NCBI GenBank assembly: GCA_946623825.1
Contig: CAMORN010000001.1
Location: forward strand, 258,246-322,245
Source of the DNA: an uncultured Alphaproteobacteria bacterium
GTDB taxonomy: Bacteria > Pseudomonadota > Alphaproteobacteria > Rs-D84
Direction: 5' to 3'
DNA length: 64,000 nucleotides
In this document: piece by piece, positions 15,148 to 38,971 of the stretch
Layout of the letters: each line of letters begins with the position of its first letter
How positions within the stretch are numbered: the first letter of the stretch is position 1
Position numbers and translations under genes: made by a program
Notes under the pieces: model-generated
What the model was told of the DNA's origin: nothing
The model's input: only the letters and a program-made list of their open reading frames with translations
The model's database searches: none

Positions 15148-15375
15148 AAAACACCGCACGGGGCGGTGTTTTCTTATTGTGGCGGAGACGAAGTATTCCC
15201 TTGGCATAAAATGCCTGCGGGGCAACCGTAACGATTACACGGCACATGGTTTGTGTAATCTACTTGTTGTCGAACCTAGCAACTGCGTTGCGAATGGTTC
15301 AAATCTGCCTTGCGTTTGTCGACAATAAAAAAACACCGCACGGGGCGGTGTTTTCTTATTGTGGCGGAGACGAAG
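15148..15375 (-). repeat. 46-nt direct repeats (tRNA-Ser 3' end plus its terminator; 15148-15193 and 15330-15375) flanking a 136-bp non-coding insert
   Basis: AAAACACCGCACGGGGCGGTGTTTTCTTATTGTGGCGGAGACGAAG occurs twice, 182 nt apart. The interior (15194-15276) shares 55/62 identical positions with the tRNA-Arg insert over its core. Confidence 0.9.
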
Positions 15376-15452
15376 GGATTCGAACCCTTGATACCCTTGC
15401 GAGTATACCACATTTCCAATGTGGCGCACTAGACCAACTATGCGACGTCTCC
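15362..15452 (-). tRNA. tRNA-Ser (anticodon GGA), type II with long variable arm
   Basis: The reverse strand has GGAGACG...CCACA-TTGGAAA-TGTGG-(18-nt variable arm)-AAGGG-TTCGAAT-CCCTT-CGTCTCC-G-CCA, 91 nt in total. Confidence 0.9.
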
Positions 15453-19090: not shown

Positions 19091-19167
19091 TGGTGGGTTA
19101 GGTAGGACTCGAACCCACGACCAAAGCGTTATGAGCGCTCCGCTCTAACCAACTGAGCTACTAACCC
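19091..19167 (-). tRNA. tRNA with CAT anticodon (elongator Met or lysidine-modified Ile2; not initiator-like)
   Basis: GGGTTAG-TA-GCTC-AGTTGGTTA-GAGC-G-GAGCG-CTCATAA-CGCTT-TGGTC-GTGGG-TTCGAGT-CCTAC-CTAACCC-A-CCA. It has a G1-C72 pair and no GGG/CCC anticodon stem. Confidence 0.9.
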
Positions 19168-23569: not shown

Positions 23570-23599
23570 TTTATTTTCCTTTTTATTTTATCATTCATA

Positions 23600-24996
<1,397 letters not shown>

Positions 24997-38227: not shown

Positions 38228-38304
38228 GCGAGCGTAGCTCAGTTGGCTAGAGCGCAACCTTGCCAAGGTTGAGGTCGAGGGTTCGAGCCCCTTTGCTCGC
38301 ACCA
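38228..38304 (+). tRNA. tRNA-Gly (anticodon GCC)
   Basis: GCGAGCG-TA-GCTC-AGTTGGCTA-GAGC-G-CAACC-TTGCCAA-GGTTG-AGGTC-GAGGG-TTCGAGC-CCCTT-TGCTCGC-A-CCA. Confidence 0.93.
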
Positions 38305-38635
38305 GAATTTATAAACACCCGAAAGGGTGTTTTTTATGTTTAAGCAAAGGGGCGAGAACCCGCAGGGTTGCGAGGCGAGGCAACGGCAGTTGCCGAAGTA
38401 CTTTGCTCGCACCAGAATTTATAAACACCCGAAAGGGTGTTTTTTATGTTTAAGCAAAGGGGCGAGAACCCGCAGGGTTGCGAGGCGAGGCAACGGCAGT
38501 TGCCGAAGTACTTTGCTCGCACCAGAATTTATAAACACCCGAAAGGGTGTTTTTTTATGTTTAAGCAAAGGGGCGAGAACCCGGAGGGTTGCGAGGCGAG
38601 GCAACGACAGTTGCCGAAGTACTTTGCTCGCACCA
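38291..38635 (+). repeat. tandem array of three 110/110/111-bp units, each ending in a copy of the tRNA-Gly 3' end
   Basis: CTTTGCTCGCACCA starts at 38291 (in the tRNA), 38401, 38511 and 38622. Units 1 and 2 are identical and unit 3 differs at 3 positions. Each unit is a terminator hairpin (AAACACCCGAAAGGGTGTTTTTT), then GCAAAGGGGCGAGAACCC (an inverted tRNA T-arm/acceptor copy), then the GGCAAC-GGCA-GTTGCC hairpin, then the tRNA 3' end. Confidence 0.95.
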
Positions 38636-38770: not shown

Positions 38771-38971
38771 ATGTTTAAAAAGTGTAAAGCAAACTGTCAA
38801 GCAAATGACAACCTTTATATAAGAAATGATGTGTTTTATTATATGGTCGAATTACCGCGTCAAGATGGTAAAAGACGATATTTTATAAAATCATTACACA
38901 CAAAAGATTATTACGAAGCATTGGAAAGGCATTTTATCCAAATATGGTCACATAAAAACAGCACCTTATAG
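38771..38971 (+). pseudogene. N-terminal fragment (66 codons) of a tyrosine integrase
   Basis: ...NLYIRNDVFYYMVELPRQDGKRRYFIKSLHTKDYYEALER... fits the N-terminal pattern of tRNA-targeting integrases (LY-R-x3-YY ... GKR-x4-SL-T-D-x2-A). No catalytic domain follows. It lies 136 nt after the last tRNA-Gly 3'-end copy. Confidence 0.6.

Follow-up and report, generated by a model that had tools for sequence, protein, structure and literature searches.

What is the short, hairpin-rich stretch of DNA that separates the tRNA-Ser(GGA) gene of an uncultured alphaproteobacterium from a second copy of the gene's own 3' end? The question is raised by positions 15148-15375 of a 64,000-nucleotide (nt) segment of contig CAMORN010000001.1 (GenBank assembly GCA_946623825.1, forward-strand positions 258,246 to 322,245; order Rs-D84), the whole of which is referred to as the window. 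A first-pass annotation, made from the letters of the sequence, had described an insert between two direct repeats at this site. The insert belongs to a family of modules of ~140-190 bp behind tRNA genes, organized around a folded scaffold designated S1. Our tentative answer, somewhat short of probable, is that the Ser insert is a non-autonomous, site-specific insertion into the T loop, which replaced the tRNA 3' end and was recognized as a folded single strand by an enzyme acting in trans.

A folded module behind tRNA-Ser(GGA)

The intact tRNA-Ser(GGA) gene lies at 15362-15452 on the minus strand (ARAGORN; 59 bits with the Rfam tRNA model). As the first-pass annotation had reported, a perfect 46-nt direct repeat (15148-15193 and 15330-15375) surrounds a 136-bp insert, and each repeat copy comprises the tRNA 3' end CTTCGTCTCCGCCA together with a terminator hairpin; the repeat finder widens the repeat to 52 nt at 96% identity. 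Terminator 1, a bidirectional intrinsic hairpin directly 3' of the tRNA (15330-15354; terminator scan and repeat finder), and terminator 2, which has the same sequence (15148-15172; terminator scan), are given without a strand. All other elements are located on the minus strand. In the tRNA sense, terminator 1 is followed by the "arm", which copies the T arm and acceptor of the tRNA in antisense and has diverged from them (15296-15321; CGACAAACGCAAGGCAGATTTGAACC). It corresponds to the inverted T-arm-like segment of the first-pass annotation and also spans the acceptor and variable region. Next come the cap hairpin GCAAC-GCA-GTTGC (15279-15291), which closes a GAACC/GGTTC helix and is optional across the family, and a sense copy of tRNA nt 52-58, GGTTCGA, i.e., the 5' strand of the T stem and the T loop up to A58 (15270-15276). 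This sense copy directly precedes the scaffold, which is thus embedded in the T loop of an incomplete copy of the tRNA.

S1 consists of two elements. Hairpin P3 (15223-15269), delineated by folds, RNAalifold with pair counts and a covariance-model match, has ~17 bp and two small internal loops; its proximal sequence is conserved, and its distal 4 bp and 2-bp loop helix are variable. Element P4 (15197-15221) is composed of CCCGCAG, the variable hairpin GCATTTTATGC(C) and AAGGGA, with pairing at its base between the N of NCGCAG and the N of GAGNGA. The unit closes with a second tRNA 3'-end copy, ATA plus CTTCGTCTCCGCCA (15180-15196; repeat finder and exact coordinates), which we read as the probable original nt 59-76 of tRNA-Ser, displaced from the gene.

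A sister unit is found on the minus strand behind tRNA-Arg(ACG) (unit, 1259-1418; tRNA, 1419-1495). Its parts are a terminator (1389-1411), an arm (1354-1381), GGTTCGA (1347-1353), P3 (1300-1346), P4 (1277-1298) and a tRNA 3' copy (1259-1273), after which the terminator is degenerate; the direct repeat at this locus spans merely ~15-18 nt and includes no terminator. Alignment of the 62-nt Ser core with its Arg match (1291-1355) gives identity at 55 of 62 positions, the figure originally stated. The substitutions noted for the 8-bp stem are likewise present, with GATTTTAC/GTGAAATC in Arg and GATTACAC/GTGTAATC in Ser, so that one T-A pair is exchanged for A-T and one T.G for C-G, and the variable second hairpin reads GGGC-TTT-GCCC in Arg and GGCAT-TTT-ATGCC in Ser. 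The two loci are no segmental duplication of one another. Within the window, the core halves occur nowhere beyond Ser and Arg (0.01-0.5 chance matches expected), and a covariance-model scan retrieved two S1 copies, Arg at 85.9 and Ser at 80.5 bits, with the next match at 15 bits.

Beyond the window, an exact-pattern search (CAAGTAGATT-N20-30-AATCGTTACGG, one genome per species) brought up 119 or more additional stretches in 73 other assemblies. These supply the further copies that the first-pass annotation had called for. The counts that follow refer to the matches listed, window included, namely 129 cores in 74 assemblies. The hosts are nearly all Candidatus Enterousia or alphaproteobacterial metagenome-assembled genomes (MAGs) from rumen, horse, sheep, yak and human gut. 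A same-strand tRNA gene lies at most 400 nt upstream of 88 of the 129 cores, and many cores that have none are located at contig ends. Nineteen tRNA species are hit (Met, four Arg, two Gln, four Ser, Tyr, Leu, three Pro, Gly, Lys and Val). One candidate member from a Bacteroidota MAG (L060) was rejected as a chance pattern match, as it scores only 30.6 bits. The family appears to be restricted to Candidatus Enterousia in the order Rs-D84, which is characterized by reduced genomes of 0.75-1.0 Mb (PMC12306168).

The core pattern has no match in 2.9 million viral contigs. In Rfam 15, no family reaches the gathering or E-value threshold over the module, sub-threshold matches are at chance level, and the matches above the gathering threshold in the window are tRNAs and transfer-messenger RNA (tmRNA) only; the tRNA covariance model does not match the module either. 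The family is previously undescribed, no account of such modules having been found in the full-text literature or in Rfam 15.

Covariation was assessed on 116 distinct cores with RNAalifold and pair counts. In P3, 98.9% of the cells are paired and nine pairs covary, including the outer 4 bp and the distal 4 bp, both outside the search pattern, and the 2-bp loop helix. None of 500 shuffles reached the observed score, which dropped from 0.427 to 0.004-0.063 when the 3' partners were slid. The compensatory changes first noticed between two loci are therefore borne out as strong covariation in a larger alignment. Eight invariant P3 pairs carry no information, since they are fixed by the search pattern; with a covariance model that makes no exact-match demand, these pairs still hardly vary, and scores run from 59 to 89 bits before falling to 36. 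The N-N combination at the base of P4 covaries as well (CG 47, GC 38, AT 9 and TA 2 in 110 parsed units), and the P4 hairpin, bracketed by NCGCAG and GAGNGA, occurs in 64 distinct sequences that are nearly all Watson-Crick paired. One compensatory change separates orthologous loci, TTGG/CCAA in L017 and TCGG/CCGG in L058. Wobble cells are of the G.U type ~23 times in the tRNA sense against ~5 of the A.C type, an asymmetry that identifies the tRNA-sense strand as the one that folds, in agreement with the first-pass annotation. Folds of single whole units often join three hairpins through a helix of the arm with the 3' copy into a four-way junction.

Other structural identities were considered and rejected. 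A locus-specific guide role of the P3 tip is contradicted by identical tips at different tRNAs. A hammerhead ribozyme would need the CU that GAUGAG lacks, and the polarity is wrong for a K-turn. A retron or group II intron is dismissed for want of a reverse transcriptase and because the module is far too small. Nor is the module a degenerate second tRNA gene interrupted by an insertion, given that the arm runs antisense as far as the variable region and does not represent a tRNA 5' half. A CGCAG-like pentamer recurs three times per S1 unit, as GCAACGCAGTTGC in the P2 cap loop, as ..ACGCAG.. on the 3' side of the P3 loop and as NCGCAG in the 5' flank of P4, where CACAG in this third position tends to be accompanied by AAG instead of GAG across P4. 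The pentamer may be a repeated motif for protein binding or non-canonical pairing.

The T-loop junction and its variants

In 47 canonical units, the elements are arranged in the same order when read in the tRNA sense: the tRNA, a bidirectional intrinsic terminator (T1), the antisense arm, often the cap hairpin GCAACnnnGTTGC, sense T-arm nt 52-58, S1, sense nt 59-76 and, as a rule, another terminator (T2). On its 5' side, S1 is preceded by 7 nt that equal nt 52-58 of the cognate tRNA at all seven positions in 37 of these units, and locus-specific variants are matched too, namely GGTCCGA at one tRNA-Met, AGTTCGA at tRNA-Val and GGTTCA at tRNAs with a TTCAAAT loop. On the 3' side, the adjoining 18 nt correspond to tRNA nt 59-76, perfectly so in 28 of the 47. 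S1 thus interrupts a partial copy of the tRNA precisely within the T loop, with nt 52-58 before and nt 59-76 after it. Both S1 junctions end in (C)GA. Counted from the CCA end, unbroken tRNA identity mostly extends over 19-21 nt, the extra positions being the (C)GA that the end of S1 has in common with T-loop nt 56-58.

Imperfectly and in antisense, the arm reproduces the tRNA between its CCA end and the variable region, acceptor and T arm included. Its antisense alignment score is 18.1 for the cognate tRNA versus 13.5 for non-cognate tRNAs, compared with 13.1 and 12.3 in a sense-orientation control, and the cognate tRNA ranks within the best 5% in 19 of the 47 units. As judged from these alignments, the arm is a genuine, though diverged, antisense tRNA copy. 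At many unrelated loci its T-loop complement reads GAYGAGAAC in place of GATTCGAAC; in our own reading, this would put tandem G.A/A.G mismatches opposite G57-A58, beside the branch point. The combination proposed in the first-pass annotation, a hairpin scaffold joined to locus-specific segments of the cognate tRNA in direct and inverted orientation, thus recurs in 47 canonical units and at 19 tRNA species.

Units also occur in tandem (L008, L009, L030, L070, L073, L088 and L095), and the slot of S1 can be filled by the scaffolds S2 and S3 or by a palindromic "module 2". S1 is always located 3' of ..GA, and it is also found directly 3' of the GAGNGA end of another scaffold, or of CCAGA in a tRNA-Leu copy, without arm or GGTTCGA. 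These further scaffold families, at least three in number, are S2 (L002, L063, L113 and L132), S3 (L019, L029, L048 and L113) and module 2 (L016, L024, L025, L101 and L105); they lie between the T-loop ..GA and nt 59-76, and arrays behind a single tRNA often combine them with S1. Module 2 is a palindrome of ~85 nt that ends in TTATTGTGTATCGAGGA and is followed by the 3' strand of the acceptor only.

In the window, 3.1 tandem units of 110 nt are present on the plus strand behind tRNA-Gly(GCC) (38291-38635; Tandem Repeats Finder and 3' copy search). They have the same architecture with a minimal scaffold, i.e., terminator, antisense T-arm copy, GGTTGCGA, hairpin GCAACGGCAGTTGC and tRNA 3' end. 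The Ser cap hairpin had been said to be the one found in these units; it is present in the Ser insert, and its tRNA-Gly counterpart is a relative of it. The Gly array is followed by a 66-amino-acid N-terminal remnant of a phage-type integrase (38771-38968). At tRNA-Ala(TGC) in L108, three tandem 96-nt units have a T loop without insert and end in an uninterrupted copy of the T arm and acceptor, with a GAGACG/CGTCTC hairpin in front. Four S1 copies are inverted relative to tRNA-Tyr (L025 at ~400-900, L110, L114 and L117); read in their own sense, they lead into a hairpin resembling a terminator and from there into the tRNA-Tyr 3' end in antisense, and they are bordered by inverted repeats containing TTCGAA. 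Motifs of the form GAGTTCGAAAGT...ACTTTCGAAC, similar to the repeats bordering these S1 copies, are seen after the Gln(CTG) arrays of L007 and L085. At tRNA-Met loci, the terminators before and after the S1 unit are of type X (AAACGACC..GGTCGTTTT) and type Y (AAACCGGG..CCCGGTTTT), in an order that is reversed between L002/L063 and L069/L116.

Proposed insertion and its rivals

Comparisons between genomes bear on how the modules came to lie behind their tRNAs. In 58 of 80 between-species pairs, conservation is higher in the segment from the tRNA end to the end of the copy than in either flank, and in no pair is it lower. In five species, tRNA-Gln(CTG) and its module are 97-99% identical, T1 loop included, compared with 73-77% for the coding DNA beside them. 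When all five are aligned, the conserved block extends from the tRNA promoter exactly to the CCA of the copy, and a clearly diverged T2 comes next. One tRNA-Met gene of the window (19091-19167) is empty, and its orthologue in L036 is filled. There, T2 is closer than T1 to the terminator of the empty site, and the displaced 3' copy has decayed. The end of the conserved block, the T2 of L036, the decayed copies and the degenerate terminator of the Arg unit fit a module that supplies nt 59-76 and T1 and displaces the native end.

In the mechanism that we propose, the module would enter a tRNA gene directly behind nt 58, at the end of ..TTCGA in the T loop, bringing its own tRNA nt 59-76 and an intrinsic terminator, so that the tRNA would stay intact and transcription would still stop. 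The last 18 nt of tRNA-Ser (nt 59-76) would then be supplied by the module, and the original 3' end with its terminator would be pushed downstream, a displacement that would generate the direct repeat. In a single-stranded form of the tRNA sense, the antisense arm would pair with GGTTCGA and nt 59-76 to rebuild a T-arm-like duplex, from which S1 would branch exactly at the 58/59 junction and serve as the structure for protein recognition. A trans-acting recombinase or transposase could recognize and cut this folded structure, like integron attC, CTX-phage attP and IS200/IS605 ends, and one strand exchange with the tRNA gene, at the boundary of GNGA and ATCC, would yield the observed arrangement once resolved by replication. 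The folded-strand logic is that of integron attC and of CTX-phage integration. A unit of ~150 nt is easier to handle as a single strand than as a duplex circle. The insertion origin, the single-stranded DNA form and the identity of the enzyme are what we infer here.

Several results weigh against such an insertion, beginning with the enzyme. A recombinase tracking the module, which the first-pass annotation had proposed to look for, was not found: ~1 Mb of loci contains no recombinase, transposase or reverse transcriptase linked to the modules, and clustering of 894 open reading frames (ORFs) from 119 loci produced syntenic housekeeping clusters only, such as hydrolases, transferases and ABC transporters. 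A tblastn search with the integrase remnant of the tRNA-Gly locus recovered only the query itself. Genes for tnpB, iscB or IS110-type recombinases do not occur beside the modules. Among singleton ORFs, a Pfam scan identified a P4-like integrase fragment (L038), a WYL protein, a methylase and a weak G2P/Phage_CRI match (L086), and within the 8-kb loci no integrase is present except in L038 and L086. The Rep-like identity of the L086 ORF matching G2P/Phage_CRI, and with it a link to filamentous phages, was rejected, as there is no PDB match and no alignable homology to the partner ORFs of L135/L136.

The L086 integrase, which counts in favour of insertion as a candidate for the enzyme acting in trans, is a 194-amino-acid tyrosine recombinase on the minus strand (690-1274), reduced to the catalytic domain (PF00589, E = 5e-16); among solved structures, it is closest to the catalytic domains of XerA and XerD. 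The junction TGGTTGGAGCACG-aaatctgcac-GATTCCGTGCGCTCCAACCA lies ~150 nt downstream and comprises an antisense arm, 10 nt and the tRNA-Gln(TTG) 3' end, after which an S1 array begins. A 94% identical recombinase in L132 (8001-8585) and L138 is followed by two copies of the tRNA-Met 3' end with an S2-like unit between them. The nucleotide similarity of L086 and L132 ends 31 nt past the stop codon, and in both the tRNA identity starts in the T loop, as in S1 units. This comparison shows that the lineage holds an integrase system that acts at the same junction and whose target is set by element-borne sequence; that the system also moves S1 does not follow from it. The ends of this integrase-bearing element are different, it shares no scaffold with S1, and its left end was looked for and not found. 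Catalytic-domain-only tyrosine recombinases of 193-194 amino acids form 245 clusters in gut and rumen Alphaproteobacteria, most of them in other contexts, without tRNAs or S1. In 80 metagenome loci with relatives of the 194-amino-acid recombinase, the exact S1 core pattern is absent, another coding region almost always follows directly, and tRNA 3'-end copies follow in L138 only, so a general link between recombinase and module is not supported. Most such recombinases reside in mobile regions of other kinds, together with genes for ankyrin, DUF3768, resolvase and T5orf172 proteins (P0001-P0120).

The remaining counterarguments concern the modules themselves. The closing helix P1, of the arm with the 3' copy, is weaker than had been expected and weakly cognate-specific (-13.4 versus -11.3 kcal/mol). 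Copies in the same genome share 0.754 identity, compared with 0.774 for the same tRNA in other genomes and 0.731 for unrelated pairs, and at orthologous loci the divergence of the arm correlates with that of the scaffold (r = 0.57); there is thus no sign of recent transposition bursts, and much of the pattern is vertical. Neither a strain-level presence/absence polymorphism nor an excised form was seen in the look-ups, which for the rpoZ/tdk neighbours of the window species returned the same arrangement or contigs broken inside the units and are uninformative on such a polymorphism. The high conservation of the module could come from selection on a host function and not from spread, and terminator-order swaps, such as that of types X and Y at tRNA-Met, would need array rearrangement or exchange.

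A host function is the core of an alternative that we consider rather unlikely, namely that S1 is a structured non-coding RNA. It would be made in the tRNA sense, either through read-through past the tRNA terminator or from its own weak promoter. This RNA would carry a tRNA-like 3' tail (nt 59-76 with CCA) and a terminator, tRNA-processing enzymes could trim and stabilize it, and the repeats would reflect the origin of the gene with no ongoing mobility. Strong covariation, wobble pairs that fit the tRNA-sense strand only and the compensatory change between L017 and L058 speak for it, as do the unpaired and proximal-stem nucleotides, highly conserved in 74 assemblies with the gap in bit scores given above. 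Single-sequence folds often show a four-way junction whose closing helix ends in ..CCA, the modules persist in genomes reduced to 0.75-1.0 Mb (PMC12306168), and in almost every case a terminator oriented in the sense of S1 lies at most ~20 nt behind it, including where S1 is inverted or not in a T loop. Transcription itself is the difficulty, as strong bidirectional terminators flank the units, with an intrinsic one between the tRNA and every unit, and a consensus promoter scan of both window units predicted none; the -35/-10-like hexamers around the cap and "TAGATT" are, in our own reading of the sequences, variably and inconsistently spaced. The weakness and poor cognate specificity of the closing helix, the lack of a match to Rfam or of the tRNA model to the module, and the several unrelated scaffolds in the same slot tell against an RNA as well, and T1 loops that are identical between species with ~75% coding identity fit recent spread better than selection. 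The first-pass annotation had set a mini-element beside a read-through RNA. The mini-element is favoured, because a terminator precedes each unit, no promoter is predicted, conservation exceeds that of the flanks, copies and terminators decay, and arrays are tandem or mixed. Its description as "attP-like, cis-mobilisable" is not borne out, given that no recombinase tracks the module and the integrase element shares no scaffold with it.

Mobility could also be confined to S1 alone, as a miniature IS200/IS605-like (PATE-type) single-strand transposon with two subterminal hairpins and no inverted terminal repeats, a decidedly unlikely explanation in our view. Its target would be a short sequence, ..TTCGA or ..GA, on the 3' side of which it would integrate without duplicating it. 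As the disruption of a real T loop would be lethal, the surviving insertions would be those in non-essential pseudo T-arm copies. A separate process, palindrome-driven template switching at the terminator, would create these pseudo-copies in the order sense, terminator, antisense, sense. P3 at the left end and P4 at the right end, the strand-specific structure, the constant position of S1 after ..(C)GA with its own end in ..GNGA, and the S1 copies after GAGNGA of other scaffolds or CCAGA of tRNA-Leu, which lack arm and GGTTCGA, all agree with this. In IS608, pairing of a guide with the cleavage site is known, and N1 on the 5' side of the P4 foot, which covaries with N2 in the terminal GNGA, resembles it. 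Set against these points are same-genome copies that are not near-identical, the need for an independent process generating pseudo T-arm triplications at many tRNAs, and the conserved block at Gln(CTG), which includes T1 and the arm and not S1 alone. No Y1 HUH transposase was detected with two IS200/IS608 TnpA queries run by tblastn against ~1.7 Mb of DNA, a weak test as this comprises no whole genomes. Very unlikely, though of interest for the 94%-identical recombinases at tRNA-Gln and tRNA-Met, is a nucleic-acid guide of folded single-stranded DNA or RNA, formed by S1 and the two locus-specific segments (the antisense arm and sense nt 52-58/59-76), that would steer a minimal, catalytic-domain-only tyrosine recombinase or another trans-acting enzyme to the chosen tRNA by complementarity in place of protein-DNA recognition; it would explain these recombinases and also how one scaffold serves 19 tRNAs. 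That the modules are inert leftovers, be it attL/attR remnants of tRNA-integrated prophages or islands after deletion, local duplications or assembly artefacts, has a negligible probability. Integrase insertion classically leaves direct repeats of a tRNA 3' end, and the integrase remnant beyond the tRNA-Gly array points the same way. Inert remnants are contradicted by a 62-nt core carrying compensatory substitutions in at least 129 copies, 74 assemblies and 19 tRNAs; a module more conserved than its neighbouring genes, its absence from the viral contigs and the lack of similarity to the ends of the integrase-bearing element also speak against them.

Likeness to known systems and further observations

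By analogy, the module resembles a tRNA-integrating island reduced to its attachment logic and, in structure, the folded single-strand recombination sites. With tRNA-integrating islands and cis-mobilisable elements (CIMEs) it shares the direct repeat of a tRNA 3' segment around the insert (46 nt at Ser), the reconstitution of the tRNA by element-borne sequence, tandem accretion behind a tRNA and the absence of an integrase inside the element. Unlike these, it measures ~150 bp, too short for easy circularization as a duplex, has its T-loop junction beside a covarying hairpin scaffold and contains an internal antisense copy of the target. Neither an internal cognate integrase nor a parent island with the same ends was found, the neighbours being housekeeping genes, the L086/L132 ends being different and no viral contig matching.

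Integron attC sites and the CTX/TLC-type elements that exploit Xer likewise keep their structure through compensatory changes while the sequence varies, fold strand-specifically with bulges and mismatches, and form cassette arrays behind one primary site; the inverted, imperfect target copy of the module could make a folded site double-stranded in the same manner. Here the target is a tRNA T loop and not attI or dif, and the cassettes are without genes. No attC R and L boxes (RYYYAAC ... GTTRRRY) are present in S1 or at the junctions, and no IntI-type integrase is adjacent. For the modules, recombination as single strands is a proposal.

The two subterminal hairpins, the missing inverted terminal repeats and a putative insertion point 3' of a short fixed sequence recall IS200/IS605 PATEs, and the conserved scaffold passing at once into locus-specific flank sequence recalls omega RNA. 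The modules differ in that no TnpA or TnpB was found and copies are old and diverged. The exact boundaries of a PATE-type S1 are ambiguous, because (C)GA also ends the scaffold. As the copied flank is intact in the adjacent tRNA gene, a TnpB-type nuclease guided by it would cut that gene. In contrast to the guide scaffolds of omega RNA and bridge or seek RNA, the module has neither an adjacent nuclease or recombinase nor an Rfam match. Plant mitochondrial t-elements, mascRNA and tRNA 3' external spacer RNAs are similar in lying beside or downstream of RNA genes and in a potential acceptor-like helix ending in CCA; in the module, by comparison, a three-helix insert replaces the T loop, the closing helix is weak and a terminator separates it from the tRNA. 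The module falls outside each of the named families, CIMEs, attC sites, PATEs and guide RNAs alike.

If the modules are mobile, they would be among the smallest site-specific insertion elements known, with target choice written into the element as sense and antisense target copies around a structured core. They would offer a natural model for retargeting integration between tRNA genes and possibly a compact, retargetable insertion system. Genomes of 0.75-1.0 Mb, usually thought to be poor in mobile DNA, would then hold diverse tRNA-tail cassettes with at least four scaffold types. If S1 is an RNA, it would represent a new, widespread, covariation-supported class at many tRNA loci. Either way, a large, clean alignment is available for experimental work.

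The genes neighbouring the modules in the window encode thymidine kinase, an M23 peptidase and RpoZ. Three contigs of the window species (L121, L123 and L124) stop ~80-130 nt past rpoZ or tdk, inside the tRNA/module region; the modules break short-read metagenome assemblies at tRNA genes. The window can be assigned to a low-GC alphaproteobacterium from its ~35% G+C in combination with a permuted two-piece alphaproteobacterial tmRNA, encoded at 23597-23949 with the tag AANDNVRFAMAA.

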